Source of the DNA: Vibrio cholerae ATCC 14035
GTDB lineage: Bacteria > Pseudomonadota > Gammaproteobacteria > Enterobacterales > Vibrionaceae
DNA: 32,000 bases
NCBI RefSeq assembly: GCF_000621645.1
Contig: NZ_JHXR01000002.1
Coordinates: 60,001-92,000 of the forward strand
Direction of reading: 5' to 3'
A model generated the notes under the pieces. The model did not search any database, was not told where the DNA came from, and was given only the letters and a program-made list of their open reading frames with translations. The position numbers and the translations under genes are program-made. This document shows positions 3,001-23,579 of the stretch, in pieces. How positions within the stretch are numbered: position 1 is the stretch's first letter; every line of letters begins with the position of its first letter.

Positions 3001-4138
3001 CGGAACCTAACTGAGTATCAAACTGGCCAGACACAGTCAGTGGATCCGCGCCATCCGATCCCGCGGGTAGATCATTTTCATTCAAGCTGAGGGTCGGTTC
3101 ATCGACCATCACCGGCGCACTACCATCATTGATGGCCACAACCACATCAATCGGAGCTTGGATCACGTTGCCGTTACTGTCGGTTCCCGTCAGTTGGAGT
3201 GCAATTGAAATTTGATCACCACTGATAGAGACCAAACCGCCCCCCACCGAAGGCAAGTGGTCAATCGGCTGGCTGAGAGTGGTTGTGATGGTGAGATTAA
3301 CATCTCGGCCTATCGATTCCGCGCTAATCGCGATACTCAATACCGTGCTACCGTTTTGCTCACCAATAATGCTATTGGTCGCGGCATCATAACGGAAAAC
3401 TACAGGTTGCCCGGAAGAGGTAATGTCTTGGTTGAGCTCGGCAAGCAGCGAGGTTAAAAAAGCCGCTTCAGGCACAAAAGAGGCTGGCAGCAGCGCGAGG
3501 CTACCTGCCGTAATTAAGCTGGTCACCGTAGACGTTTGCGGATAAGTGCCAAGTGACAGCGACCCTTCGGTGACTTGCGTGCTCAGGCTTTCACCACCCG
3601 CGGCAAAACGCAGTGGGTTAACCAAAGTTTGAGTTGTCGAAAACGTTTGGTTGTAGCCTTGAGTATCAAAGGCGGTACTGGCAAGCACTTCTAAGAAGTT
3701 ATAGTCAATGGTAATTGCACCACCGTTAGCCGAGCCACCCGCACCAGCGCCTGCCGCGGCGGCTTCTAATGCGGTGGTTGGGTCGACACCGTCTAAAATC
3801 GCCTGCTGAATCGCCGCGATAGCTTGCTCATCAAAATTCGCCGTATCCAATTGCGCTAAATCAAGGTTGATTTGACCTTGAACGGGTGCAGCTTGCACTT
3901 CCGGCTGTCCATCTGCTGAGAACTCTGGCAAACACGCCACGCAGTTCTCATCAATCTGCACACCACCTTGTGTTGTTTGCAGTTCGATCGCAGATTGATT
4001 GACCGTAATGATAATTTCATCTGGTTGCAGAACATCCCCTGCATTCACAATCCGCGCTTGGCCCTGCGCATTAACAACAACCACATTGCCAGACAAACTT
4101 GTGACTGTTACAGGTTGAGTGACGACTTGAGACTGCAT
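1..4138 (-). CDS. craA: Giant LapA-like T1SS repeat adhesin, N-terminal 1379 codons (gene continues beyond the left window edge)
   Basis: The minus frame is open from the ATG at 4138-4136 (GGGGG 4 nt upstream) down to position 2, and the ORF track shows only short plus-strand shadow ORFs here. My translation starts MQSQVVTQPVTVTSLSGNVVVVNAQGQARIVNAGDVLQPDEIIIT, the type of N-terminal retention module seen in LapA-like adhesins. A poly-Ala-Gly motif follows, then at least 6 tandem units of about 144 aa, each ending in DFDGD / DYDND / DADGD acidic motifs (size and pattern of the Vibrio T1SS-143 repeat). The symbol is assigned from architecture plus synteny with hapA, ompW and volA (recalled as VCA0849), not from an alignment. 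Confidence 0.85.
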   Translation of the reverse strand, partial: MQSQVVTQPVTVTSLSGNVVVVNAQGQARIVNAGDVLQPDEIIITVNQSAIELQTTQGGVQIDENCVACLPEFSADGQPEVQAAPVQGQINLDLAQLDTANFDEQAIAAIQQAILDGVDPTTALEAAAAGAGAGGSANGGAITIDYNFLEVLASTAFDTQGYNQTFSTTQTLVNPLRFAAGGESLSTQVTEGSLSLGTYPQTSTVTSLITAGSLALLPASFVPEAAFLTSLLAELNQDITSSGQPVVFRYDAATNSIIGEQNGSTVLSIAISAESIGRDVNLTITTTLSQPIDHLPSVGGGLVSISGDQISIALQLTGTDSNGNVIQAPIDVVVAINDGSAPVMVDEPTLSLNENDLPAGSDGADPLTVSGQFDTQLGSDQVASYQIDPSTANPIAGLTSQGDAVILGEPTLIDGNRVYQATAGGRDIFQLTLNADGSYQFVLQGTLDHAAGSDALTISLPIVAIDYDNDSSAPGNLNIEIQDDKPIIIGAEQLTVAKQTLDTGSIGGGASLVADGNFTTTQGSDGVVSYRLDSLTDSVAGITSGGVAVTLSESVDANGNYTYTATAGGEPVFTLLLNQDGSYRFTLQGSLDHALNSDELLVNFTVVATDFDGDTASITLPVTVKDDKPYFTNVTSLNVHENDLPQGSDVTKEPLTASGQFELVQGSDRVASFTLDSSVNPVQGLTSNGVAVTLSAPVDDGHGNLTYTAMAGAVTVFTLTLNTDGTYSFTLAAPVDHALNSNDLTLNFQVIATDFDGDSDSIVLPVKINDDKPYFTNVQGLYVHENDLPQCSDTDKEPVTVNGQFQLVQGADTVASFALDSSVNPVQGLTSNGVAVTLSAPVDDGNGNLTYTAMAGSVTVFTLTLNSDGTYSFTLAAPVEHALNSDSLTLNFKVIATDFDGDTASIVLPVTVLDDQPSVISAQALSVNEDDLATGTDQSKESTTANGQFTTTQGADGIAHYQIDTSTSSDTGLTSQGQPVVWGAPSITTTSSGQVYTYQGIANGVVIFTLVLRADGSYSFTLNGAVDHPLNANELTLNIPVLAQDADGDTSPITLPVTIVDDVPILHDKNIALQEGSVASSVNLFSRDNNLSPDTQGADRGVITHFSAVDEAGRDIQFREGSVLSNDIELNGAAKTVTVVEIVNGVSRDLGTLTIQPNGTATFTPVTQLDHTDGNDIKFTVDVTATDYDHDTSTEQLNITISDHKATITQQKFTGYEDQGHDAALNLVPAGEQSNAQDNLGGLPVEALKLALQVNLYDVDQGESLGEVSIWNPNQIRGDFYYLDSANQLVKLDVDPASGHVVLPAALLQQSINGTIATVENLYFVPDRHYSTGNGGMNASVSVEILHNGVRDHFTNGNMRIEIESVADIATWKSSSEFH
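530..3130 (-). repeat. In-frame tandem coding repeats, 432-441 bp (144-147 aa) per unit: 5 clear units plus 1 divergent unit
   Basis: Equivalent positions of the conserved ...D/E-H-A/P-L-N... codons fall at 1056, 1497, 1929, 2361 and 2793, giving spacings of 441, 432, 432 and 432 bp. The 42 nt at 1604-1645 are identical to 2036-2077, exactly 432 bp apart. The leftmost unit (about 530-960) is recognisable only at protein level (TQLDHTDGNDIKFTVDVTATDYDHDT). Confidence 0.9.
3749..3763 (-). other. Candidate LapG-type periplasmic protease processing motif (residues 126-130, A-A-A-A-G)
   Basis: Codons GCC GCC GCG GCA GGC occur within ...DPTTALEAAAAGAGAGGS..., just after the N-terminal retention module. 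This matches the (T/A/P)-A-A-G type di-alanine site known for LapA-family adhesins. The assignment rests on position and motif only. Confidence 0.4.
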
Positions 4139-4437: not shown

Positions 4438-5223
4438 TTAACTGACTTTGAATAGGTGCTGCAGTGCTCGACTCACGGGTAGCTGAAGTCTATCAATATG
4501 CACCCACATTTTGCCGCCAAAATCACGGGTAACTTTATCGATTTTTCCGACATTGACCACGATAGAACGGTGAATTTGCCAAAACTGGTTGGGATCGAGC
4601 TGCGCAAGCAGCTCTTTCAAAGAAGAACGCAACAAATACTCATGCGTTGTCGCGCCATGCACTTTGTACAAAGAGAGGTACTTATCCTCCGCTTTCACGT
4701 AGAGCAACTCATTTACGGCAATAAGATGGATCTCCTCACCTTTACTGGCTTTTAACCAGACCTGGTATTGAGGTTTAACAGTGCGAGTAAGTTGCTCAAA
4801 TTGGCTCATCAACTGTGCCAAATCATTGCTTGGAGCCACGTTACGCCGCAATTGTTGCTGCAATTTTTCGCAGCAACTCGCTAGTCGAGAAGACGAAAGT
4901 GGCTTCAGCAAATAGTCGATAGCATGTGTTTCAAAGGCACTGACTGCGTACTCATCATACGCGGTGATGAAAACCACTAACGGGACTTTAGGCTGTTGAA
5001 GTAGACGCCGAGCCACTTCGATGCCATCCATTTTAGGCATCCGAATGTCTAAAAAAACCACATCAGGCTGATGCTGTTCAATTGCCTGCAAAGCGATTTG
5101 ACCATTTTCCGCACTGGCCACGATCTCAAGCGCTGGCCACAACTCAGCCAAGAGCTTATTGAGATGATGACGCAGTAAAGGTTCATCATCCGCAAGAACC
5201 GCAGTGTAGGTCTGGTTCATCAT
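4438..5223 (-). CDS. LytTR-family response regulator (receiver domain plus LytTR DNA-binding domain)
   Basis: 261-aa ORF. The N-terminus is receiver-like (LADDEPLL, VVFLDIRMPKMDG, LVVFITAYDEY). The C-terminal roughly 100 aa follow the LytTR pattern (IHLIAVNELLYVKAEDKYLSLY...HRSIVVNVGKI). AAGAGG lies upstream of the ATGATG start. Confidence 0.9.
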   Translation of the reverse strand: MMNQTYTAVLADDEPLLRHHLNKLLAELWPALEIVASAENGQIALQAIEQHQPDVVFLDIRMPKMDGIEVARRLLQQPKVPLVVFITAYDEYAVSAFETHAIDYLLKPLSSSRLASCCEKLQQQLRRNVAPSNDLAQLMSQFEQLTRTVKPQYQVWLKASKGEEIHLIAVNELLYVKAEDKYLSLYKVHGATTHEYLLRSSLKELLAQLDPNQFWQIHRSIVVNVGKIDKVTRDFGGKMWVHIDRLQLPVSRALQHLFKVS

Positions 5224-5382
5224 TAGAGCCTCTTCTTACTTTTTGTATACCCAAGCTACTTGACGTTGCAGGTAAACGCCGAGTGAAAAATTTATCTGGA
5301 ACAGATTGGCATCGCCGTAGACCGACCTTTGTTGCTTAGCCAAGGATACCCTCATTCCTCTTATTATGCGCATAGACAAACT

Positions 5383-6462
5383 CTACGATTGAGGTGAACG
5401 AGCCTGCGAGTAATCATAAAAAGAACGCTGCAATCCCTGCAAATGGTGCAAACGGATGCGAATCGTGGCCGTAACGCCGCCAGAGCAATTTTGCGCCACG
5501 GTCAGTAAACCTTCATGCCCAAAGAGCCCAGACAGACGGTCGCGAACATTCTGCAAAGCAATACCATTGCCCTTGGGGGTATCACTTAAGCCCATGCCAT
5601 TATCTTCTACCGATAGCTCAAACCAGTCATCAGCCACTTCGATTCTCACCCGAATGGTACCGCCTTCGGCTTTGGGTTCAATACCATGTGACACTGCATT
5701 TTCGACCAAAGGTTGGATCAGCATAGGCGGCATGCCGAGTGTACCCCATTCTGACAACTCGGGCAGAGTGTATTCCAGCCTTTCCCCTAAGCGTATTTTT
5801 TGAATTCCCAGATACGCATCAATCAGTTGCATCTCTTCACGCAAGTCTCCTGTATTGGTTCGTCGCAAGCGCATAGTACCGCGCAGTAACTCAGTGAGTT
5901 TCTCCAACATTAACTGCGCTTTATAGGGTTCTACCGCAATCAAAGCATTAATATTGGCCAAAGTATTGAACAGAAAATGAGGCTCCATCTGACTTTGTAG
6001 CTGCTTGAGTTGACTCAATAACAGCGCTTTTTCTTGCTCCGACTGGCGGCGGCGAGCCGCTTCCAATGCGCCTTGAGCTAGGATTTTTTGTTCGTGAGAA
6101 TAAAAATACAAAAAACAGACCGCGGAAAAAATAAACCCAAGAAAAATAATGGGCTTATAAGCAGAAAACTCATCAAAGCCCGGGTAATGGCGCAGCCATA
6201 GATAGGCGCTGCTGGTACCCAGCACCACCGCACAGCTTAAAGATAAGATATTCACCAAACGCTTTGATAGTTCCGGCCAGCGCCGTGCAATCCATTGCGC
6301 GGAAAAAAAGGCGCTGTAGCCATAACTAAAGCTGATGGCGAGATGCTCTCCAAATAGCCCACCCCAAATTGACATCGTCGCGAGAGCGATCACGATGCAA
6401 AACAGTGTGGTAAAACCAAAACTTTTCAAATCTTGTGCTGAAATATCAAAGCGTTCCATCAT
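5383..6462 (-). CDS. Membrane-embedded LytS/YehU-type sensor histidine kinase (no obvious extracytoplasmic sensor domain)
   Basis: 359-aa ORF. The first roughly 130 aa contain four hydrophobic segments joined by short loops. The H-box is MEPHFLFNTLANINALI (His_kinase/LytS type), the N-box is LVENAVSHG, and the G-boxes are VEDNGMG and GNGIALQNV. The start ATGATG directly abuts the TAG stop of the upstream gene. Confidence 0.9.
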   Translation of the reverse strand: MMERFDISAQDLKSFGFTTLFCIVIALATMSIWGGLFGEHLAISFSYGYSAFFSAQWIARRWPELSKRLVNILSLSCAVVLGTSSAYLWLRHYPGFDEFSAYKPIIFLGFIFSAVCFLYFYSHEQKILAQGALEAARRRQSEQEKALLLSQLKQLQSQMEPHFLFNTLANINALIAVEPYKAQLMLEKLTELLRGTMRLRRTNTGDLREEMQLIDAYLGIQKIRLGERLEYTLPELSEWGTLGMPPMLIQPLVENAVSHGIEPKAEGGTIRVRIEVADDWFELSVEDNGMGLSDTPKGNGIALQNVRDRLSGLFGHEGLLTVAQNCSGGVTATIRIRLHHLQGLQRSFYDYSQARSPQS

Positions 6463-7707
6463 CTAGAATTTTCCTTTTAGATTGAACAAAACCCTAACGC
6501 TATCGGGTAAGTTGACGTACGCCGAATCCGTTTCGCCACCAAAGAAACGCGCGGCCAGTTCCAGTTCCAAAGAGGCAGAGCCCGTGTCGTAAGCTTGCCA
6601 ATTGATCCATTGAGTAATCATCCAACCGCCCTCTTCCGGAGACCACAAAACATCAAGAGTTGGCGTGAGGTTATCCATACCAAACCGTTGACCATTACCG
6701 CTATCCCATGTCCAATGCAGCATAAAATTGTGCGCCACCAGGTTAGTGGCTTGATAGCCTTGTGCATACGCAAAAGCCATTGGTGACCGGCCCTGTTGAT
6801 GCAGCAAAGTCGCATCAGCCAATATTTGCTGCCATTCATCAGCATTCCAACTGCGTCCGTCGTACCAGTATTCGGCAATGACGTTGTGCCCCTCTGGGTT
6901 TGCCCAGTTTATGCCAAACAAAAACTGCGCCGCATTTTCTTGTTTAACCAATTCGATCGGCTGCTCAGTTTGTCTTTGGTATTGCCAATATTCTCGTTGA
7001 TATAGCCAAGAGCTGTGCACGCCCCATGTGCTATTGAGTACAGAAACCCACGAGCCGCCCACTAAACCACGCCGGACATTGTCGTAATAAACGATGCCTT
7101 GGATTTCACTCTCCCCTATTAAGCGATAGTGGCGTAATCCAATGCCTTGTTGTTCATTTTGAGTCACTAACTGCGCTTCGCTCGAACGCCCCCAAGCACT
7201 ATCCGTGGCGATCAAAGTCCATTCACCTAACTCTTGATAGGAGGAGAGCGCGAGCACACCAGCCCCCTCTTCCACTTGAATACCTAATGGATTGCGCCGA
7301 TAGGGTAAAAAAAGATCCAGCGGCCGATAACCATAGCCCACTCCCCAATCGAGACGAATTTTTCCGGCGGTAATATCTAGTGTTTGTCCAGCAAGCGTGC
7401 TTTCCCCTTGCCAAAACAGTTCACTGAGTGTCAGCCTCGTTTCTTTTGCCTGCTCATCACTTCGATAGAGTGCGCGGCTAGTGAGCGCAAAACTCGCCGT
7501 CCAACCTTGCCAGCGAGACTGTAAATCGAGCCCGATATCCACTTGCTGCTGTTCATCATCTTGAGCAGCAGCCCACACCAAGGAGTCATTGCGTTGAGCA
7601 TGCGAAGCGCTCACCATCCAATCCCAGTCTAACTTGAGCGGCTCTTGTGTCCATGCAGGAGGACAACTCAGTAGCCCAATAATTCCTAACGCCTGAGCAC
7701 ACCTCAT
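6463..7707 (-). CDS. Predicted outer-membrane beta-barrel protein, family not recognised
   Basis: 414-aa ORF. It has an N-terminal signal sequence (MRCAQALGIIGLLSCPPAWTQEP, with a possible lipobox LLSC) and a sequence rich in Trp, Tyr and Gly with alternating hydrophobic pattern. The C-terminus VRVLFNLKGKF ends in Phe with hydrophobic residues at alternate positions, as in the BAM beta-signal. GGAG lies 9 nt upstream of the ATG. Confidence 0.65.
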   Translation of the reverse strand: MRCAQALGIIGLLSCPPAWTQEPLKLDWDWMVSASHAQRNDSLVWAAAQDDEQQQVDIGLDLQSRWQGWTASFALTSRALYRSDEQAKETRLTLSELFWQGESTLAGQTLDITAGKIRLDWGVGYGYRPLDLFLPYRRNPLGIQVEEGAGVLALSSYQELGEWTLIATDSAWGRSSEAQLVTQNEQQGIGLRHYRLIGESEIQGIVYYDNVRRGLVGGSWVSVLNSTWGVHSSWLYQREYWQYQRQTEQPIELVKQENAAQFLFGINWANPEGHNVIAEYWYDGRSWNADEWQQILADATLLHQQGRSPMAFAYAQGYQATNLVAHNFMLHWTWDSGNGQRFGMDNLTPTLDVLWSPEEGGWMITQWINWQAYDTGSASLELELAARFFGGETDSAYVNLPDSVRVLFNLKGKF

Positions 7708-7711
7708 AGCA

Positions 7712-8455
7712 TTACTCCAAGGCCGTATTTTGAATCAAATACGCCGGGTTGTAGAACTTATCCTCCAAACGTTTCGGCTGTACGGATTGATATTCGATCA
7801 CGGTTCGTCGCAAGGGTTGAATTTTATCCAGCAACGTCATCTCAACCACTCGATCACCTTGCACGGTAAACCACGCCACCTTGGCCAGTTTACCGGAATG
7901 CAGATAAAGTTCGGCTTTGATTGGTGAAGCATCCGCACGATTAAGCCACAAGGTGATCGCTTGATAGCTGGCCCCTGCGGTTTTCGCTTTGAGCGCCAAG
8001 CGGTACGTTTCAACGCTGGATTGATCTTCACGTTGCACCGAGTCTTCTCCCTCTAAACTCGCTTGATAATCATCACTCCAAGTCAGTGTTGAAATATCAC
8101 CGACTGAAGCTTCACCGAGCAGTTTTTGCATCGGTGTAATACGGATTGGGCGGCGACTTTTCGGCATCAGTAACCAATAGTTATCTCCGAGCATCAACAT
8201 TTTTTGTCCAGCTTCTGTCGCCGATTGAAACAGCACTAGCGATTCGCGATTTTCACGCACATAGACATCATACTGATTGGTTTTTTCCAACTGGCCATCA
8301 TGATAAAGCTGCACCACAGAGACGACTTTCGCTGCCGCTTCTTTAAGCCGGTACTCATCGGCTCGCTGCACCATGCTGCTCACATCCATCTCGACCGCGA
8401 AAGATCGATCCATCACCACAAGCCCTAAAACCACCATAAAAATGAGTTTAAACAT
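7712..8455 (-). CDS. Periplasmic LolA-like protein (outer-membrane lipoprotein-sorting protein family)
   Basis: 247-aa ORF with a signal peptide (MFKLIFMVVLGLVVMDRSFA-VE). The stretch NYWLLMPKSRRPIRITPMQKLLGEASVGDI matches the w-x-y-x-P...r-x-x-r-i......G.....D core that I recall for the LolA_like family. The ATG overlaps the permease stop (ATGTTTAA). Confidence 0.7.
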   Translation of the reverse strand: MFKLIFMVVLGLVVMDRSFAVEMDVSSMVQRADEYRLKEAAAKVVSVVQLYHDGQLEKTNQYDVYVRENRESLVLFQSATEAGQKMLMLGDNYWLLMPKSRRPIRITPMQKLLGEASVGDISTLTWSDDYQASLEGEDSVQREDQSSVETYRLALKAKTAGASYQAITLWLNRADASPIKAELYLHSGKLAKVAWFTVQGDRVVEMTLLDKIQPLRRTVIEYQSVQPKRLEDKFYNPAYLIQNTALE

Positions 8456-9707
8456 ACGCTAACGCCTCCGTAATTGGCTTATTGACGCCTTTGCGCGCAG
8501 AGAACCACGCCGCGAGTACACAAATGAGCACTGTGCCTAGGGTGCAAAACCCAACCAGAGTGAAGGAAAAATAGAGATCGAGCGGATAACCTTCGGTTCT
8601 TCCCGGGGGCGGTGGCATTTGAATATCCGCTACGCGTACCGCCACTATGGTTATTCCTGTAAGCAAGGTACCCAAGAGTGAGCCGCACAGCGCCAGCAAG
8701 GTCGCTTCGCGCACAAAGCCCGCCAAAATGTCGCTTGGGTACGCGCCAAGAGCCGACAAAGTTCCGATTTCACGAGTCCGCTCACTGACCGACATGGTTA
8801 AGGTATTAAAGAGCGCAACAAACACCACCATCGCCATCACGGTTCCCATCACGCCAAACAATCGGTCATACAAGTCTTTGACTCGGGTGTAAAAGAAAGC
8901 GAGTTGCTGCCAAGGTGTCACTTGCAGCTCTTGTGATAAGGACAACTGATTCAGTTGATTTTCCACCCACGTTTGTAGCGTTTGAGTATTCTCGGTGTTA
9001 AACAGATACACAGACAAGGTGCTGACTTTACTGGAGTTGAGCAGCTCTTGAGCCGATGCTAAGTGCAAATAGAGCTGCCGTTTATCCAACTCAGGCACTC
9101 CTGTCGAATAGAGACCACGCACTTGAAAATCCAGTGCGTTCAGTGCGCCATCCGCCGTGGTAGCGAGCAGCGTCACCCAATCACCGACGCCCACACTTAA
9201 GTTGCGCGCCAGATCTACGCCAAGCATCACTTGAGGTTGAGTCGGGTCAAAGCGCGGAGACTTAGGATCTTGCAAGGTTTGCCCTGCTCGCAGATCCAAA
9301 AACGGGCCTTTCATATCAAACTCTTTGTCATCCACACCAAGACCAACAAAAATCGTTGATTTTTGGCCATTCGAAACCAGCCCTGTTAACTCAATACGTG
9401 GCTGGATGCCACGAATCGCCGGATTCGCCAGCAACACTTGGCGAATGTGGTCGCTGCCTTCTAATCCATTCGCCAAAGGTGTCTCTTCCTCTTGTGCAAA
9501 ATAGCCACGCTGGCTCAGCGTTAAATGTCCGACATCCCGCGCTGTCGATTCACGTAGTGAATCATAGGTATAAAGACCAAAGCCGCCTGCAGATGTTAAT
9601 GCCAATACTGCAATCGCGATGATCGAAATAGAGAGTAGGCTGCGGCGACGATTACGCTGCAGGTTTAACGCCGCCAATCGCCATGCTTGTGAGATCAACT
9701 TGCCCAT
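8448..9707 (-). CDS. MacB/LolCE-type ABC transporter permease (FtsX domain with a large periplasmic domain)
   Basis: I moved the start to the ATG at 9707 (MGKLISQAWRLAALNLQRNRRRS), which has GGAGG 7 nt upstream and overlaps the ATPase stop by 13 nt. The protein has one N-terminal TM helix, a periplasmic region of about 240 aa, and then three C-terminal TM helices (LFGVMGTVMAMVVFVALFNTL, LLALCGSLLGTLLTGITIVAV, FTLVGFCTLGTVLICVLAAWF). Confidence 0.85.
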   Translation of the reverse strand: MGKLISQAWRLAALNLQRNRRRSLLSISIIAIAVLALTSAGGFGLYTYDSLRESTARDVGHLTLSQRGYFAQEEETPLANGLEGSDHIRQVLLANPAIRGIQPRIELTGLVSNGQKSTIFVGLGVDDKEFDMKGPFLDLRAGQTLQDPKSPRFDPTQPQVMLGVDLARNLSVGVGDWVTLLATTADGALNALDFQVRGLYSTGVPELDKRQLYLHLASAQELLNSSKVSTLSVYLFNTENTQTLQTWVENQLNQLSLSQELQVTPWQQLAFFYTRVKDLYDRLFGVMGTVMAMVVFVALFNTLTMSVSERTREIGTLSALGAYPSDILAGFVREATLLALCGSLLGTLLTGITIVAVRVADIQMPPPPGRTEGYPLDLYFSFTLVGFCTLGTVLICVLAAWFSARKGVNKPITEALAYV

Positions 9708-10378
9708 TGCATCGCCTCCAATGAAATTTGTCCGTCCACCAGATTGAGGGTGCGATCGCACTGAGCTGCCATGCGCCCGTCATGAGTGGCAACCACAAAA
9801 GTCGTGCCTAACTCATGACCAAGACTTTTCATTAAACTGATCACGAGGTTGGCTGTTTGACTATCCAGACTCGCGGTAGGCTCATCCGCGACCACCAATT
9901 TCGGGTTGTGAACCAACGCCCGAGCTATCGCTACACGCTGCTGCTGACCACCGGAAAGATGATCTGGACGCTGCTGCATCACCGCTTCTAATCCAACCTT
10001 GGTTAGCATGTCATGTGCTAACTTGTGCTGATCACGACGGCTAAAACCATTAAGCATCAAGGGATAGGCGACATTCTCTAGCGCCGTCATCACGGATACT
10101 AAGTTGAATTTTTGGAACACAAAACCAAACTGAGTACGACGCAGTAAGGCGGCAGACTTACCCTTACGTGGATATACACGTCCCTCTAATGCCACTTCAC
10201 CTTGGTAATTAGGGTCAAGTAATCCCAAGATGTTGAGCAAAGTGCTTTTACCCGAGCCGGAGGGGCCACACAGCACTAACATCTCGCCTTGCTGTACCAC
10301 ACCGCTCACACCACGTAGCGCTGGCACGCTTTGAACTCCCAATGAGTACTGTTTTTCTATACTTTGAAAATGCAGCAT
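9695..10378 (-). CDS. ABC transporter ATP-binding protein (LolD/MacB-NBD-like)
   Basis: I moved the start to the ATG at 10378 (MLHFQSIEKQ), preceded by AGGAGG. The motifs are Walker A GPSGSGKST, signature LSGGQQQR, Walker B LVVADEPT and H-loop ATHD. The 29-codon extension in the ORF track overlaps the upstream gene and has no SD. Confidence 0.92.
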   Translation of the reverse strand: MLHFQSIEKQYSLGVQSVPALRGVSGVVQQGEMLVLCGPSGSGKSTLLNILGLLDPNYQGEVALEGRVYPRKGKSAALLRRTQFGFVFQKFNLVSVMTALENVAYPLMLNGFSRRDQHKLAHDMLTKVGLEAVMQQRPDHLSGGQQQRVAIARALVHNPKLVVADEPTASLDSQTANLVISLMKSLGHELGTTFVVATHDGRMAAQCDRTLNLVDGQISLEAMQWAS

Positions 10379-10386
10379 GCGTCCTC

Positions 10387-11058
10387 CTACCCTTGGCTCA
10401 GCAAGGCTTGAGCTTGCTGGGTATCTGGATGTTGCGCATCCGCTTGCTGCATGGCTTCTAGCCAAAGGCGAGCTTGCGCTTCATCTTCGGCGCGCAAGGC
10501 AGCAACAATAGCTAAGCGATAGATCCACGCGGTGGCCGCAAACGGCTGCGCTTGAAATTGAGGATCGGACAATAGATTCAGGTAGAGATCATATCCGCGC
10601 TCAAAATGGTTAAACATGTCGGGCATGGCGGTATAAGTGGCCGCCGCCACTGCCATAGCAAGCATTTGAACTGGTAAACCGTTGCGTATCTCTTCTGAAC
10701 TTGCCGTGTGCTCACTTGATTGGGTCACCTGACTACTTAATAAAGAAAGGCCTTTCTCTATTGTGGCAAGCCCCTCTTCGCTATAACGCATTTTCTTCCA
10801 CGGTAAAAAAGCATCACGTCCCATCAAGGTGCGTGTACTGCCCAAATAGACCAAGCTCAGTGCCGTCGCCCCTTCTTGCGCAACCAATTTTTCTAAATCG
10901 GCGTACAAGGGTTCAACTAACTTTTCATCACCTTGTGCGGCTTGGTTATAACGTTGGATCATGGCTTCGCTTGGCAGCGCAAATACAGGCCAAGCAGATA
11001 AGCTAAACAACAAAACGGAGACATAAGCAGTCAAGCTCAACGAAGTTCGAATTTTCAT
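10387..11058 (-). CDS. Secreted, predominantly helical protein of unknown function (first gene of the cassette)
   Basis: 223-aa ORF with a signal peptide (MKIRTSLSLTAYVSVLLFSLSAWPVFA-LP). The remainder is rich in Ala, Leu, Gln and Glu and looks helical or TPR-like. No family was recognised. Its stop lies inside the SD of the ATPase gene. Confidence 0.7.
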   Translation of the reverse strand: MKIRTSLSLTAYVSVLLFSLSAWPVFALPSEAMIQRYNQAAQGDEKLVEPLYADLEKLVAQEGATALSLVYLGSTRTLMGRDAFLPWKKMRYSEEGLATIEKGLSLLSSQVTQSSEHTASSEEIRNGLPVQMLAMAVAAATYTAMPDMFNHFERGYDLYLNLLSDPQFQAQPFAATAWIYRLAIVAALRAEDEAQARLWLEAMQQADAQHPDTQQAQALLSQG

Positions 11059-11276
11059 GTGAACGGTCCTTTTCAGTAACGTAATTGTCAGAACGTAAAC
11101 GTCCTCAACTGCTCATCGTGTTTGTGCCACGACGCAGCAGCTATCAAGAATGGAGTGAGCTTACTGAACTTCGTCTGTCGTTATCGGGCTTTGCGACCAA
11201 TGGTCTTTATGGGGCGTGAATGGACAATATCGGGAGCGAATGGGTGGCAAGAAGTGAAGAGATAAGATATGAGTTG

Positions 11277-11308
11277 ATAAAAACTGCGCCAGTACAAAGA
11301 CTGGCGCA
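11277..11308 (-). terminator. Rho-independent terminator downstream of the ydhF-like gene
   Basis: The 9-bp stem TGCGCCAGT (11285-11293) pairs with ACTGGCGCA (11300-11308) around a 6-nt loop. On the minus strand the hairpin is followed by GTTTTTAT. Confidence 0.75.
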
Positions 11309-11370
11309 AGAGTATCTCCTCAAACAACTTGGAGCTGCAGGTAGGAAGAAGATTGAGCCGTAATAACCCG

Positions 11371-14907: not shown

Positions 14908-15192
14908 CGCGCTTCATGTGCTCTTTTCAGTGGTTGGGTTCCTTTACTTGCACCTTCTCACCCCCACCCGTTACGCATCCAACCACTTGCTCGCCATAAC
15001 AAAACGACTTGGCGTTATAGATCGGTAGCAAGGGATATCCGTCATGGGTCAACTGAAAAAATCGCATCAAGCCAATAACAATAACCACACACCCAAGCGG
15101 TTTGAGAATACCGATTAGCAACCAAGCACTCCTGCGTGCTGCCAATGTTGCTTTTGTTCTTCAATCGTGCGGAAAGACCTAGGAGGTCGAGA

Positions 15193-16431
15193 ATGTTGTA
15201 TAAATCTTCCCTTGCTGTCGCCATCTCAGCCCTGATTGCGGGGCAAGTTAGCGCCGCTGGTTTTCAAGTTGCCGAACACTCAGCATCGGGTTTAGGTCGT
15301 GCATTTTCTGGTGAAGCGGCGGTAGCCGATAATGCCAGCGTGTTAGCACGAAATCCTGCCGCCATGATGCTTTTTGAGACGGCACAATTCTCTGGTGCAC
15401 TGTCGATCGTCGATCCTGAAGTCAATGTGGACGATCTTTCCAACAATCAGTCGATGAAGGATGTGGCTCCTCTGCAAATTGTGCCCGCCGCGTATTATAT
15501 CCGCCCAATCAACGACCAATGGGCTTGGGGGCTAGCCATGTTTACGACCTATGGCGTTGCGACCGACTACCCCAATGAGATTTATGCAGGCGACTTAGCC
15601 GGCGATACCTCACTCATCTCAGTCAACCTCAACCCGAATATCGCTTATCGTGTTAACCCAGAACTGAGCTTAGGTTTTGGCCTTGATCTGGTCGCCGCCA
15701 AAGCCAAATTAACTCGCCACAAAGGTGGATTGGCTCCCTTCATGGGCGGCGGAAATCCTAGCGATAACCTGATTGGCATGACGGGTGAAACCCTTGCTTT
15801 AGGCTGGAATATCGGCGCGCTTTATGAATTGGATGAGCAAAACCGGATCGGCTTTGGCTACCGTTCGCGCGTTAAGCTGAATTTCGATGATGGCGAGTTC
15901 TCCAGTTATGACTCAGGCATCGCGACCAGTGCGGTTGTTCCGGGACAACTCAAAATCGAACTGCCAGCCATTTGGGAGCTCTCCGGCTTCCACCAACTGA
16001 ATGAACAATGGGCTGTGCATTACAGCTACCAACAAACCGATTGGAGCAGCTTTGAAGAACTCACTGCCACTTCCAGCCAATGTAAAAACGGCACCTGTTT
16101 CCAAAAAATCGAACAATACCAAGACAACGGACGCTGGTCTGTCGGCGCAACCTATACGCTGAACACCACTTGGACATTGCGCGCAGGTTTGGCTTTCGAT
16201 GAGCAAGCCGGTAAGGCAACACTCAGTATTCCCGACAGTGACCGTTTCTGGTACTCAGCGGGTTTGACGTACACCTTGACGCCACAACTGACTATGGATG
16301 CCGGTTTTGCGTTAGTACAGAGCCGTAAGGGGTCTTTTACTGAAAAAAACCAAATCGGCCAGAACCTTCAGTTTGAGTCTGAGGCGGTCGCCTATATCAG
16401 TGCATTGCAATTTAACTACCGTTTTCACTAA
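15193..16431 (+). CDS. fadL: Long-chain fatty acid outer-membrane transporter (FadL/OMPP1/TodX family)
   Basis: The start is set at the ATG at 15193, with AGGAGG 6 nt upstream. The N-terminus has a signal peptide followed by AGFQVAEHSASGLGRAFSGEAAVADNASVLARNPAAM, which parallels E. coli FadL [35 protein letters not shown]. The C-terminus is FNYRFH. Confidence 0.9.
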   Translation: MLYKSSLAVAISALIAGQVSAAGFQVAEHSASGLGRAFSGEAAVADNASVLARNPAAMMLFETAQFSGALSIVDPEVNVDDLSNNQSMKDVAPLQIVPAAYYIRPINDQWAWGLAMFTTYGVATDYPNEIYAGDLAGDTSLISVNLNPNIAYRVNPELSLGFGLDLVAAKAKLTRHKGGLAPFMGGGNPSDNLIGMTGETLALGWNIGALYELDEQNRIGFGYRSRVKLNFDDGEFSSYDSGIATSAVVPGQLKIELPAIWELSGFHQLNEQWAVHYSYQQTDWSSFEELTATSSQCKNGTCFQKIEQYQDNGRWSVGATYTLNTTWTLRAGLAFDEQAGKATLSIPDSDRFWYSAGLTYTLTPQLTMDAGFALVQSRKGSFTEKNQIGQNLQFESEAVAYISALQFNYRFH

Positions 16432-16446
16432 TTTCTGGAGTCGAAC

Positions 16447-18837
16447 ATGAAACAGGTTATTAAGCTCTCCCTACTCTGCTCAGCACTCTGGTTAGCCGGT
16501 TGCGGTGATGAGACCAATAGTTCAGGTGCAAGCACTGAGGTGGTATACGAATCCTATATTCAACAAGCCTTGCAACGTGATACCACGATCAAATTTGCGT
16601 TAAGTGGCAAAGATGCCAATGTGCCTCTACCCTCCTTTGCCTTAATGAATGCTAAGGATGGCACGTTGGAAATTCCGCCAGGAAGCAATACTTCTGGCTC
16701 TAACCCATTGGTCGCGATGGGACAAGTGGATGGCTGGCCCATCACTATGCCGCTGTTCCTCGATTTTAAAGGTGCAGGTTTAGCCGATAACATCATCACA
16801 TCGGGTATTTATCTGTACGAGTTAACCGACTCGATGACCGGTTCACCGAGTATCAAAGCTTTATTAACCAATGGGGTGGATTACACCGCCGTATCCAGTG
16901 CTGCTTCCGATAAGATTCTCATCATGCCGACCAAAGCACTCAATGCCTCTTCGGAATACATTCTGGCGGTCACCTCAGAAGTCTCGGATGCCAACGGTAA
17001 TCCGGTGGGGACTTCTGCAAGCTATGCCGCACTAAAATCCAAAAACAAGATTTACAGCGAAGGAGATATTGCGACGCTACAAAAAGTCACTCAAGGGGTA
17101 GAAAAAATCTTCCAACTCAGCGGCGTCGATGAGACTCAAATCGTTTACTCGACGTGGTTTTCCACCCAATCGGTGAGCAATACTCTGTTTGCCACGCGCG
17201 GTGCGACCGCATCCGCTTTTGCCAGTGGCAGCAACCAATTAGAGACAGTGTGGAAACAAACAGGCCTTGGGCTCGATACGGCTTACACCATACAATTAGG
17301 TACACCCGTTGACTTCGCTGCCGCTCTGACAGCGGATGACAATTTCAGTACCTATGTTGGTGCAGACAAAAAAACCGCTATTTTAGGTACTTACACGGCC
17401 AATACCGTTGATGTAACCAAAGGCACAGTCCGTCTACCTTACTACCTTGAAACTGGCAGTAACTGGAATACTCAACCGTTTGAATCGGCGATGCCAAGCC
17501 TCGCCAAGATCAAAGCCGCACTGGCAGACAGTAAAGAGCAATTAACGATCGGCAGCCAACTGCTTGCCGCGGGGATTGATACCACCAAGCTCGCCACTGA
17601 TGCGAGTGAACAGCTCAAGCTGATGGGTTTGACATTGACCAAGTCCGATGGCACTGCATTGGACCCTGAACGCTACATCACTCGCTATTCACCCGTACCC
17701 AAAGTGAAATCGGTGCAAGATGTGCCATTTTTACTGTTTACTCCGGCAGGTGCTGCGCCAACTGATATTGTGATTTATCAACACGGTGTCACCACTGCCA
17801 AAGAAAATGCCTACGCTTTCGCGAAAAATCTTACAGCTGTGGGACTTGCTGTTATTGCCATTGACTTACCGCTGCACGGGGAACGTAGTTTAGACAGCAC
17901 GCGCTCGGCCAATAGTGATCCCCTTGCTTACATCAACCTCACCTACTTGGCCGTGGCTCGGGATAACTTACGCCAAAGCATTCTCGATGTATTGGGACTG
18001 CGAGCAGCGTTAACCCTGTCTCAGCCTCTTTTCACTGGTACCCGACTGTCTGGCATCAATGTAGGTACAGGCTCGAAAGTTCGTATGCTGGGACATTCAT
18101 TAGGGGGAATTGTCGGCACTTCTGCGATTGCGGAAAGCAACAAGACCTTAGGATCTACTGCTGCAGATGCTATGTACAGCTTCTCTGGCGCGGCGATTCA
18201 AAACTCAGGCGGGCAAATTTCTAACCTACTATTGGGATCAGCGTTTTTTGGTCCGAAGATCAAGCATAACGTTGCATTAAGCGCTAGCACAGAATACAAA
18301 GGGTTTGCTGATGCACAATGTGCCAGCTTAGATGATTCTGCTTGCTATAACTTGTTCACTTCCTTGGCAACCCAAGAGCAGCTGGCCCAAGTCACCTCAG
18401 GCTTCCAGATGTTCTCGTATGCGGCGCAGACCCTACTCGACACCATTGATCCTTACTCTATAGTGAGCACAAAGCTCAATAATGGTGGGCTGACCACACC
18501 ACTTTACTTCTCAGAAGTGGATGGTGATAGCGTGGTACCTAACAAGGTGAGTAATCCTACTGGCTCGCTGGTTTATCTCAGCCCTCAGTTTGCCGGCACA
18601 GAGCCGCTGGCTACCTTGCTTGGTTTAACCACAGTCAATGCAGGACAAACAGCGCCAAACGCAACCAAAAGCTTTGTTCAGTTCAACAGCACGGCGAAGC
18701 ACTCGACCTTTGTTGCACCGCAAGATGCGGGATATGCGGATCTTGCACATCATACGGAGATGCAAACTGAAACCGCTGATTTTCTTGCTGACGATAGCCT
18801 TGGCGCCGTATCTAATAGCAACTCTGTCTTGAAGTAA
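16447..18837 (+). CDS. volA: Surface lipoprotein lipase / lysophospholipase VolA
   Basis: 796-aa ORF starting 15 nt after fadL. It has a lipobox (LWLAGC-GDE) and the serine-lipase pentapeptide GHSLGG. The gene order fadL-volA and the protein size match the V. cholerae VolA locus (VCA0862-0863) as I recall it. Confidence 0.85.
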
Positions 18838-20675: not shown

Positions 20676-22508
<1,833 letters not shown>

Positions 22509-22925: not shown

Positions 22926-23579
22926 TTAGAACTTATAACCACCCGCGATCATAAATACCCAAGGATTGATTTCAACATCCGTGGATTTGGCATCTGCACC
23001 TGCTTTGTAGGTTGCCGTTGTTTCAATATTGGCATACCACACAGAAGCGTTGAGGAACCAGCTATCATTGAGCATATAATCAAAGCCAACGTTAGCAGCA
23101 AGTCCCCATGAGTCGTCCAGTTTTAAATCACTCAATGCATTATTAGTACCCGTACTATTAAAGCTTTCATCAAAGAAAGTGGTGTAATTCAAACCCGCAC
23201 CAACATATGGACGGAAAGTCGAATTAGCTTCACCAAAGTAGTATTGGACCATAAAGGTAGGTGGCAAATGTTTTGTTTCACCAATATCACCAAGGCTACC
23301 TAACTCACCACCAGAGGTAGAAATCTTATGTGAAAATGGCGTAGCAGCGAGGACTTCAAAACTGATGTTGTCAGTAAACATATAGCCAAGCGTTAACCCT
23401 AACTGGGTATTGCTATTAACTGCCAACTCACTTTGAGTGTTTAACACTTTATCGCTACTGTCATTAGGTACTACCGAGGCAATACCCGCGCGCACAATAA
23501 AGTCACCTTCTTGGTGAGCAAATACAGGAGCGGAGCTTAGGGCTGCAAGTACGGCTAGGCCGCAAATGGTTTGTTTCAT
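22926..23579 (-). CDS. ompW: Outer membrane protein W
   Basis: 217-aa ORF with a signal peptide (MKQTICGLAVLAALSSAPVFA-HQEGDF) and an 8-strand barrel pattern, ending in GGYKF. I recognise it as V. cholerae OmpW. Confidence 0.95.
   Translation of the reverse strand: MKQTICGLAVLAALSSAPVFAHQEGDFIVRAGIASVVPNDSSDKVLNTQSELAVNSNTQLGLTLGYMFTDNISFEVLAATPFSHKISTSGGELGSLGDIGETKHLPPTFMVQYYFGEANSTFRPYVGAGLNYTTFFDESFNSTGTNNALSDLKLDDSWGLAANVGFDYMLNDSWFLNASVWYANIETTATYKAGADAKSTDVEINPWVFMIAGGYKF

Follow-up and report, generated by a model that had tools for sequence, protein, structure and literature searches.

A conserved gene cassette of Vibrio cholerae brings together an ABC transporter of type VII, a LolA-like protein and an unclassified predicted outer-membrane barrel with an AlgZ/AlgR-like two-component pair

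Results

Organisation of the VCA0856-VCA0850 cassette

We analysed a stretch of 32,000 nucleotides (nt) from Vibrio cholerae ATCC 14035 (contig NZ_JHXR01000002.1, positions 60,001 to 92,000), hereafter the window, in which seven consecutive genes occupy positions 4438-11058 of the minus strand and correspond to VCA0856-VCA0850 of V. cholerae chromosome II. Their products comprise an ATP-binding cassette (ABC) transporter, a LolA-like protein, a predicted outer-membrane barrel, a small helical protein and a two-component pair, and our results suggest that they constitute a conserved and probably autoregulated unit. An earlier note on this DNA, made from the sequence and without database searches, had described the locus as a Lol-like envelope trafficking route associated to a kinase and a LytTR regulator. 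The features of the cassette are, in the direction of transcription and with protein lengths in amino acids (aa):

11284-11309, minus strand: intrinsic-terminator-like hairpin and T-run (10-pair stem with 6 GC pairs, TTTTT tail)
10387-11058, minus strand: VCA0856, secreted 223-aa all-helical TPR-like protein (N-terminal hydrophobic segment; AlphaFold2 model)
9695-10378, minus strand: VCA0855, ABC ATPase of the LolD/MacB/FtsE group (Pfam ABC_tran, E 1e-31, 110.8 bits)
8448-9707, minus strand: VCA0854, type VII ABC permease with four transmembrane segments (Pfam FtsX and MacB_PCD)
7712-8455, minus strand: VCA0853, secreted LolA-like protein of 247 aa (Pfam PF17131, alias TP_0789-like)
6463-7707, minus strand: VCA0852, 414-aa predicted outer-membrane barrel of 18 strands (AlphaFold2, Foldseek)
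5383-6462, minus strand: VCA0851, AlgZ-type histidine kinase of 359 aa (Pfam His_kinase and HATPase_c)
5224-5382, minus strand: spacer of 159 nt between VCA0851 and VCA0850
4438-5223, minus strand: VCA0850, response regulator with a LytTR DNA-binding domain (Pfam Response_reg and LytTR)

The stop codon of the 223-aa gene (TAG, 10389-10387) lies inside an AGGAGG motif, and the ATG of the ATPase gene follows 8 nt on, at 10378. The ATPase and permease genes share 13 nt (ATGGGCAAGTTGA), the permease and LolA-like genes share 8 nt (ATGTTTAA), the LolA-like and 414-aa genes are 4 nt apart, and 0 nt separate the latter from the kinase gene (TAGATGATG). Direct reading of the minus strand thus reproduces the six junctions listed in the earlier note (+8, -13, -8, +4 and 0 nt, then a 159-nt gap). 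As judged from these junctions, the seven genes are co-oriented, with tight or translational coupling among the first six. That note had described six coupled genes with the regulator following after a gap; the coupling holds, and VCA0850 belongs to the conserved unit as well (see below). Neither a terminator-like site (minus strand) nor an AlgR-type box is present in the spacer between kinase and regulator. When other species are compared by tblastn, the matches of the two genes abut or stand much closer than 159 nt. The upstream boundary of the cassette is the terminator-like hairpin at 11309-11284, which ends the preceding aldo/keto reductase gene (Pfam Aldo_ket_red); an insulating terminator had been proposed there, and both hairpin and T-run are present. 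An Rfam scan of the whole window retrieved no RNA family.

Predicted extractor, carrier and helical protein

Pfam agrees with the domain types first assigned by eye, namely an ABC ATPase, an FtsX/MacB permease, a LolA-like protein, a histidine kinase and a LytTR regulator. VCA0854 matches FtsX (E 1e-18, 67.7 bits) and, over residues 23-249, MacB_PCD (E 5e-13, 50.4 bits), and its hydropathy profile gives four transmembrane segments around a periplasmic domain of ca. 236 aa, very close to the four segments and ca. 240 aa originally estimated. Its nearest solved chains are LolE (E 6e-14), MacB and LolF, and FtsX is also matched in PDB. With FtsX and MacB_PCD domains, four transmembrane segments and an ATPase partner, VCA0854-VCA0855 is classed by sequence as a type VII ABC system (MacB/FtsX superfamily), and the presence of a single permease gene implies that VCA0854 is presumably a homodimer. 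Scores against the NCBIfam models for LolD (VCA0855, 210.9 bits, cut-off 307.75) and lolCE (VCA0854, 101.4 bits, cut-off 362.45) reach only about one third to two thirds of the cut-offs, and we rejected an identity with the LolCDE equivalogs.

VCA0853 has a hydrophobic segment at residues 4-22, as deduced from hydropathy and consistent with a signal peptide, and matches the LolA_like family PF17131 strongly (E 1e-35, 123.1 bits, cut-off 30), as was expected of it if the locus were to include a LolA-like carrier. It also matches the structural-genomics protein NE2245 (PDB 3BUU; E 2e-24), and no LolA-family model scored in the Pfam or NCBIfam scans.

The 223-aa protein VCA0856 showed no Pfam or NCBIfam family above cut-off. 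Its AlphaFold2 model, with a predicted local distance difference test score (pLDDT) of 88, contains 11 helices, and its fold matches are weak and of the TPR type (e.g. PilF and designed TPRs); in some database records it is labelled as a TPR or Sel1 repeat protein. The fold search gave no specific match to AlgK, and the protein is not a lipoprotein. Relatives of VCA0856 are the first gene of the cassette throughout.

An unclassified predicted outer-membrane barrel

No Pfam or NCBIfam family scored above cut-off with VCA0852, and sequence and profile searches against PDB sequences retrieved nothing meaningful. Its AlphaFold2 model, built on a 31-sequence alignment, shows 18 beta strands (pLDDT 83; predicted template-modelling score, pTM, 0.79). 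Foldseek comparison with PDB gave 251 matches at E ≤ 0.001, and the 50 listed are almost all outer-membrane barrel proteins; among those listed, AlgE is the best match (E 3e-11, TM-score 0.53-0.55), followed by ChiP, OprD and Occ channels (TM-score up to 0.57). The C-terminal signal ends in NLKGKF, with N409, K411, G412 and F414 invariant across 31 homologues. The signal peptide, the closed 18-strand barrel of the model and the terminal F414 predict that VCA0852 is an outer-membrane beta-barrel, so that model and fold search both bear out the barrel that had been guessed from the C-terminal beta-signal.

The loop between strands 5 and 6 (residues 118-148) holds the most conserved block of the family, GKxRLDWGVGYGYRPLDxFxPYRRNPxGIQVEEGAG, and from the strand order it may correspond to an extracellular loop 3 folded into the lumen, as in porins; a second, helical loop spans residues 289-319. 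The family is small, with 257 representatives among 1.84 billion proteins in an exhaustive profile search. A Pfam scan of 40 distant homologues gave two weak matches to Caps_assemb_Wzi, another 18-stranded outer-membrane barrel (best E 1e-4), which hint at a remote link of the family with capsule or exopolysaccharide barrels. Neither VCA0852 nor these 40 homologues matched Alginate_exp (PF13372) and, with fold similarity alone (TM-score 0.53) and no Pfam match, we rejected its membership in the AlgE family. We also rejected that VCA0852 is a lipoprotein: its signal peptide (7707-7639) contains a lipobox-like LLSC that is confined to V. cholerae and one close relative, while the other 29 aligned homologues have no lipobox there and show ordinary signal-peptidase-I type ends, with a chance lipobox-like match elsewhere in two of them.

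The kinase and regulator resemble AlgZ and AlgR

The N-terminal 125 aa of VCA0851 are hydrophobic with negligible loops, comprising three strong hydrophobic segments and a weaker one by hydropathy, and lead into the PF06580 core, where H, N, G1 and G2 boxes are recognised. This is the architecture of AlgZ, a kinase of 358 aa with four N-terminal transmembrane helices and no known signal (PMC4064291). The H and N boxes are EPHFLFNTL and IQPLVENAVSHG in VCA0851, and RPHFLFNSL and LQPLLENALIYG in AlgZ (PMC4064291); AlgZ was, however, reported without G1 and G2 boxes (PMC4064291), both of which are conserved in the VCA0851 family. For comparison we used Pseudomonas AlgR and its neighbour AlgZ as retrieved from the protein database. 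VCA0851 and this AlgZ, both of 359 aa, show 33% identity over 221 aa in their kinase cores, and VCA0850 and AlgR show 35% identity over 230 aa. Because of these low identities, and because the Pseudomonas genes lie in a different context (argH-algZ-algR-hemCD), we do not claim orthology; rather, by sequence comparison the VCA0851/VCA0850 pair is AlgZ/AlgR-like in architecture and predicted DNA specificity. The transmembrane region of the kinase is poorly conserved across homologues, and VCA0850 relatives are always the last gene of the module.

The kinase had initially been labelled as LytS-like. Pfam returned His_kinase and HATPase_c and neither a 5TMR-LYT nor a GAF domain, and we replaced a LytS/BtsS-type assignment with an AlgZ-like one, in keeping with the four transmembrane segments joined to a PF06580 core. 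VCA0850 and genuine AlgR obtain similar scores against the BtsR model, and Vibrio carries a separate BtsS/BtsR system (PMC5552118).

Two observations from published data concern VCA0851. Positions 5815-5834 of the window, inside the gene, match exactly a chromatin immunoprecipitation sequencing site of AphA listed under VCA0851 (PMC6855506), which confirms the identity of the locus, and this quorum-sensing regulator may bind inside the operon. Additionally, VCA0851 and CheA were the sole ones of 51 V. cholerae kinases that exceeded FlrB in phyletic-profile correlation with FlhF (PMC7064773), which in the case of VCA0851 may just mirror the distribution of the cassette in polar flagellates.

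The module is conserved in gene content and order

To evaluate the conservation of the cassette in close relatives we scanned one genome per species, which yielded 80 loci from Vibrio, Photobacterium, Aliivibrio, Moritella, Ferrimonas and Microbulbifer. In tblastn comparisons, the seven genes keep the same order on one strand in all 77 loci that were informative on both sides; two further loci are truncated, and both retain the kinase. For more distant relatives, we traced homologues of the barrel by contig look-ups and by a metagenome scan using a 14-sequence subset of the alignment; these homologues show 26-50% identity to a distant seed, and their neighbours were assigned with iterated local hidden Markov models. 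The transport genes plus the kinase are kept in 22 distant loci informative on both sides, of which 20 were counted by script and two (L090 and L098) by inspection. In distant loci with an informative downstream side only, the barrel is followed by the kinase in 23 of 24 cases and, altogether, kinase and transporter are linked in ca. 90% of loci. The conserved order in both close and distant sets indicates that the module is an old, coherent unit, in which a transport core usually comes with a regulatory pair attached. Co-occurrence of these genes outside V. cholerae, on which the first description depended, is thus amply found.

There is no conserved eighth gene, since no flanking gene family appears in more than 19 of the 80 close loci, and across more than 150 loci the module carries neither a biosynthetic nor a cargo gene. 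The commonest neighbour, found in those 19 loci (mainly from the V. splendidus group and related species), is a lipoprotein-like gene of ca. 941 aa with LLGCSS near its N-terminus, which is located on the same strand after the regulator (e.g. L065, 11304-14129) and is not conserved overall.

Predicted AlgR-type boxes precede the operon

Three phased direct repeats, with spacings of 20 and 21 bp, are located upstream of VCA0856 (11192-11245, minus strand), followed by a candidate promoter element:

11245-11233, minus strand: repeat 1, predicted regulator box, ACCCATTCGCTCC
11225-11213, minus strand: repeat 2, predicted regulator box, GTCCATTCACGCC
11204-11192, minus strand: repeat 3 (proximal), predicted regulator box, ACCATTGGTCGCA
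11158-11163, minus strand: TAAGCT, candidate -10 hexamer (TAATCT in the family consensus), 28 nt downstream from repeat 3

A period of 21 bp, made of 9-bp sites and 12-bp spacers, is typical of LytTR regulators such as AgrA. An independent repeat finder also detected a 20-nt repeat at 11199-11238. The family consensus of the repeats, CCATTCGTCGCA, agrees at eight of nine positions with the AlgR core CCGTTCGTC, and the proximal box contains the core published for P. aeruginosa AlgR, CCGTTCGTC/CCGTTTGTC (PMC4064291).

The aligned regions upstream of the first gene show the three repeats with a 20-21 bp period (consensuses aCCATTcAc.CC, ACCATTCACTCC and aCCATTcGTCGCA). The proximal box matches at least 9 of 12 seed positions in 74 of 77 sequences and is separated from the start codon by ca. 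78 nt in most loci, by 145 nt in the window and by 108 nt in V. metoecus; flanking bases have diverged between loci, with the boxes and their phasing kept. A conserved TTAATCT appears in the family alignment ca. 27 nt downstream of the proximal box, and a conservation profile anchored on the proximal repeat reveals no conserved -35, which would fit an activator-dependent promoter. To avoid circularity we took the core from the literature as the query and, allowing no more than one mismatch, found it within 200 nt upstream of the first gene in 49 of 77 loci, while 100 dinucleotide shuffles gave 2.0 loci on average and 6 at most; similarly, TNRTCGCA occurs near the start of the first gene in 18 of 22 distant kinase-bearing loci versus 0.85 in shuffles, although these counts overstate independence because the loci are phylogenetically related. 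Given that the repeats match the AlgR box and that the kinase has the AlgZ architecture, the operon is probably autoregulated by VCA0850 through the predicted boxes.

In locus L085, from a genome (AP028990.1) in which the barrel gene stands apart from the transporter genes (see Discussion), these phased boxes are found ahead of the barrel gene. The ca. 870 bp between zapA and the stand-alone barrel gene of L085 (6134-7001) also include three tandem near-copies of a ca. 100-bp unit (…GAACCTCATGGTTCAAGGGCTAAAATCAACA…), which may be repeats of the 3' part of a sequence resembling 6S RNA. In the window, a second short direct repeat is found in the 5' leader of VCA0856 (11078-11103; AACGTAATTGTC / AACGTAAACGTC on the plus strand), providing TTACGTT motifs on the coding strand directly before the ribosome-binding site.

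Neighbouring genes in the window

The gene downstream of the cassette, starting at 4138 and running off the window, is craA (VCA0849), as identified by the locus tags in PMC6890996. The earlier note had pointed out that both are adjacent and co-oriented, which is correct for V. cholerae and does not extend to the module in general: clear craA-like sequence after the regulator is limited to V. mimicus and V. metoecus (L001 and L002), with weaker adhesin-like matches in V. paucivorans and V. proteolyticus (L011 and L016). As this arrangement does not extend beyond the cholerae clade, apart from two weak cases, and no AlgR-type box was found upstream of craA, we rejected this gene as part of the module.

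The region at 15136-18837 (plus strand) contains a gene for an outer-membrane channel of the FadL/TodX family (431 aa) and, immediately after it, one for a lipase of 796 aa that has a Lipase_bact_N domain. These genes probably represent the VolA lysophospholipase region, and would be a second lipid-handling outer-membrane pair, at 4 kb from the cassette. Further on, the window encodes a HapA-like metalloprotease (thermolysin-type, M4) that includes a PPC domain at 20676-22505 (minus strand), and OmpW at 22926-23579 (minus strand).

Discussion

A candidate self-regulated route across the envelope

Sequence comparisons and structural models establish the parts list of the VCA0856-VCA0850 module, the predicted compartments of its products, the coupling and co-inheritance of its genes, and a conserved, predicted activator-type promoter with AlgR-type boxes. 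From these we propose, giving the idea roughly an even chance, that the module is a self-contained, self-regulated trans-envelope system, providing an inducible route from an extractor to a LolA-like carrier and on to a barrel for a hydrophobic substrate. The kinase would sense a cue within the inner membrane, and the phosphorylated LytTR regulator would bind the three boxes and activate the whole operon, including its own genes, in a positive loop. The ABC homodimer could then extract, by mechanotransmission, a hydrophobic or lipidic molecule from the periplasmic leaflet of the inner membrane. This molecule would be shielded by the LolA-like protein, with the TPR-like protein perhaps docking or scaffolding the transfer, and would be taken at the outer membrane by the barrel, to be released or inserted. 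Known type VII ABC systems operate through periplasmic mechanotransmission and extract lipid-like substrates for specific partners (PMC12646458).

The presence of a conditional module with a dedicated, membrane-embedded kinase and without cargo or biosynthetic genes argues for a stress- or substrate-induced role over housekeeping lipoprotein sorting. The favoured cargo would be a membrane-active amphiphile (a xenobiotic, a fatty acid, a bile-like compound or a lipid species) that is removed or relocated. The route from extractor to carrier and barrel had already been proposed in the earlier note, and its predicted parts were all found; of the cargoes that it named, a lipoprotein of the housekeeping type is unlikely for an operon with its own inducible switch and no linked cargo gene. 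More tentatively, and with clear reservations, the module might define a fifth functional class of type VII ABC systems: a widespread shuttle under two-component control, in which a LolA-fold carrier and a TPR adaptor would link a LolE-like extractor to a dedicated 18-stranded barrel of a new family and move a non-protein, lipidic or amphiphilic substrate, while an AlgZ-type kinase would sense the substrate, or the membrane state that it causes, directly within the bilayer.

Several results weigh against the proposed route. Five distinct distant loci contain the TPR-like, ABC, permease, LolA-like and barrel genes without the kinase pair (L081 and L110 are examples of loci without the kinase). 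Conversely, in the genome AP028990.1 (L085/L086) the ABC and LolA-like genes are missing and the barrel, kinase and regulator are present, and on contig L091 neither ABC genes nor anything else recognisable precedes the barrel, such that the barrel apparently can work without the extractor. In fold, the barrel is as close to the uptake channels Occ and ChiP as to AlgE, an exporter, and the TM-scores are no more than 0.5-0.57. No ligand site can be proposed in the kinase, given the poor conservation of its transmembrane region, and the relatedness of the loci reduces the weight of the box counts. Also, our literature search found no functional study of VCA0850-VCA0856 and no expression, binding or phenotype data, and we infer the cargo, direction and inducer of the module alike.

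Alternative explanations

The cassette could instead be a second, dedicated Lol pathway delivering one or a few specific lipoproteins to the outer membrane or the cell surface, in which case the barrel would serve as a receptor comparable to LolB or as a pore for surface exposure. LolE is the nearest solved relative of the permease, LolD is the best NCBIfam model for the ATPase and the carrier has a LolA fold; besides, lipoproteins are the cargo favoured by the authors who described an analogous cluster, BBJ23-29, in Borrelia (PMC13078400). We nevertheless regard this as quite unlikely, because a conserved lipoprotein gene is found neither within the cassette nor next to it, the equivalog scores are far under their cut-offs (211 vs 308 and 101 vs 362 bits), the carrier belongs to PF17131 and matches no LolA-family model, and the lipobox-like LLSC of the barrel is not conserved. 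Moreover, housekeeping Lol systems are not known to have a dedicated, autoregulated two-component switch. A different possibility, already raised in the earlier note, is that the kinase lacks a sensor of its own and forms a complex with the permease to report transport activity, the transporter being the true sensor, as in Bce modules. VCA0851 has almost no extramembrane sensor, it is linked to the transporter in most loci as given above, and BceAB-BceS is an established pairing of a type VII ABC system and a membrane kinase (PMC12646458). However, what suggests this idea is gene adjacency, and the four-segment permease, the AlgZ-type kinase and the LytTR regulator differ from the Bce parts. 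In addition, L085/L086 keep the barrel, kinase, regulator and boxes without the ABC genes, the five loci mentioned have a transport core without the kinase, and Pseudomonas AlgZ, the nearest characterised kinase, is not encoded beside an ABC transporter. We thus consider a kinase reading transporter load unlikely.

The direction might also be the reverse, with the barrel admitting an exogenous hydrophobic nutrient or signal, the LolA-like protein ferrying it inwards and the kinase detecting it and inducing the operon. Substrate-induced autoregulation is also typical of uptake systems, the barrel matches the 18-stranded ChiP, OprD and Occ about as well as AlgE, and the barrel-kinase-regulator trio stands alone in L085. 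We find this improbable, though: no catabolic genes are linked in the loci examined, and no type VII ABC system is known to import; these systems have no path for a substrate through the membrane and act by mechanotransmission in the periplasm (PMC12646458; PMC5985334). Finally, the TPR-like protein and the barrel could form an export portal for a polymer or a glycolipid, comparable to AlgK-AlgE, PgaA, BcsC or PelB and fed by the ABC/LolA-like pair. In its favour, AlgE is the best structural match of the barrel among those listed, the regulator is AlgR-like, the product of the first gene is a periplasmic protein of TPR/Sel1-like type and the weak Wzi matches, to an 18-stranded capsule-assembly barrel, occur in 2 of 40 distant barrel homologues. 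Yet none of the loci has a linked gene for a glycosyltransferase, a synthase or a polymer-modifying enzyme, Alginate_exp is not matched, and the short TPR-like protein lacks both lipidation and a specific match to AlgK, which together make such a portal highly improbable.

Significance

The module, known by sequence in V. cholerae and 80 related genomes, mostly of Vibrionaceae, brings in an outer-membrane barrel family without a Pfam or NCBIfam model and a LolA-fold protein outside the Lol pathway. Its two-component pair is a paralogue-like relative of AlgZ/AlgR, whose signal in Pseudomonas has been open for decades, and if the module did represent a fifth class of type VII ABC systems it would offer the first tractable handle on what AlgZ-type kinases sense. 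As the operon looks autoregulated through boxes that can be mutated, a reporter screen could reveal the inducer and, likely, the substrate. This would bear on the transfer of hydrophobic molecules between the membranes of diderm bacteria, on tolerance to antimicrobials and bile in vibrios and on the analogous cluster of Borrelia.

Comparison with known systems

In the literature, VCA0854/0855 are mentioned by Kitts et al. merely as neighbours of craA and VCA0851 is termed "an uncharacterized kinase". Our search likewise found no functional study for TP0789, for NE2245/3BUU/PF17131 or for the combination of LolA-like, FtsX and LytTR proteins. The absence of a functional assignment stated in the earlier note therefore stands, but the combination is not wholly unprecedented, since the same transport logic was proposed, in a computational study (Biosci Rep 2026), for BBJ23-BBJ29 of Borrelia burgdorferi (PMC13078400). 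This seven-gene cluster encodes two secreted TPR proteins, an Omp85-type barrel, an ABC ATPase, a type VII permease and a LolA-like protein (PMC13078400). Compared by category of parts, both systems have the same five types, including a permease with four transmembrane segments that is described as homodimeric in Borrelia and is presumably so in V. cholerae. They differ in that the Borrelia barrel belongs to the Omp85 superfamily, whereas VCA0852 is predicted to be an 18-stranded, AlgE/Occ-like barrel, and in that the Borrelia cluster is plasmid-borne, restricted to spirochaetes and described without a two-component system.

The cassette resembles LolCDE-LolA of Escherichia coli in having LolE as the nearest solved chain of its permease, a separate ATPase of the LolD group and a soluble partner with a LolA fold, and its single permease gene implies a homodimer, as in LolF of the Acinetobacter LolDF system. 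Unlike LolCDE-LolA-LolB, it includes an 18-stranded barrel and a TPR-like protein and no LolB-like lipoprotein, and, in contrast to LolCDE, it has its own two-component system, is predicted to be inducible and is not universally present. AmeABCD from Castellaniella defragrans, an experimental precedent for such a transport logic, with evidence for tolerance to and efflux of hydrophobic compounds, also joins in one cassette an inner-membrane transporter, a periplasmic protein of the LolA superfamily and a dedicated, poorly characterised outer-membrane barrel (PMC6394551). It is, however, energised by a resistance-nodulation-division (RND)/HAE3 pump, uses a DUF1329 carrier and a DUF1302 barrel of 605 aa, and sits in a catabolic island with no AlgZR-type regulator described in the cassette (PMC6394551).

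Regarding regulation, the kinase shares with AlgZ (FimS) a length of 359 aa and approximately four N-terminal transmembrane helices joined to a PF06580 core, together with a LytTR partner, and the AlgR core CCGTTCGTC appears in the predicted boxes of the operon; nevertheless, these are three phased repeats beside the promoter, whereas AlgR sites are dispersed. The module also parallels BceRS-BceAB, where a kinase that lacks an extracellular sensor domain, as well as an inducible promoter for the transporter, goes together genetically with a type VII ABC system. Bce modules contain a BceB permease with 10 transmembrane helices and a large extracellular domain, an intramembrane-sensing kinase with two and an OmpR-type regulator, and function in a Gram-positive envelope with neither a periplasmic carrier nor an outer-membrane barrel. 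With its four-segment permease, AlgZ-type kinase and LytTR regulator, the cassette does not belong to the Bce type, as defined by the 10-helix fold of BceB and its BceS partner (PMC12646458). Lastly, AlgK-AlgE likewise associates a periplasmic TPR-type partner with an 18-stranded barrel, although the V. cholerae cassette has no polysaccharide synthase genes and its TPR-like protein is small and not lipidated. What is new in VCA0856-VCA0850, then, is the addition of an unclassified, predicted outer-membrane barrel family and of an AlgZ/AlgR-like, probably autoregulatory circuit to a type VII ABC/LolA-fold system.

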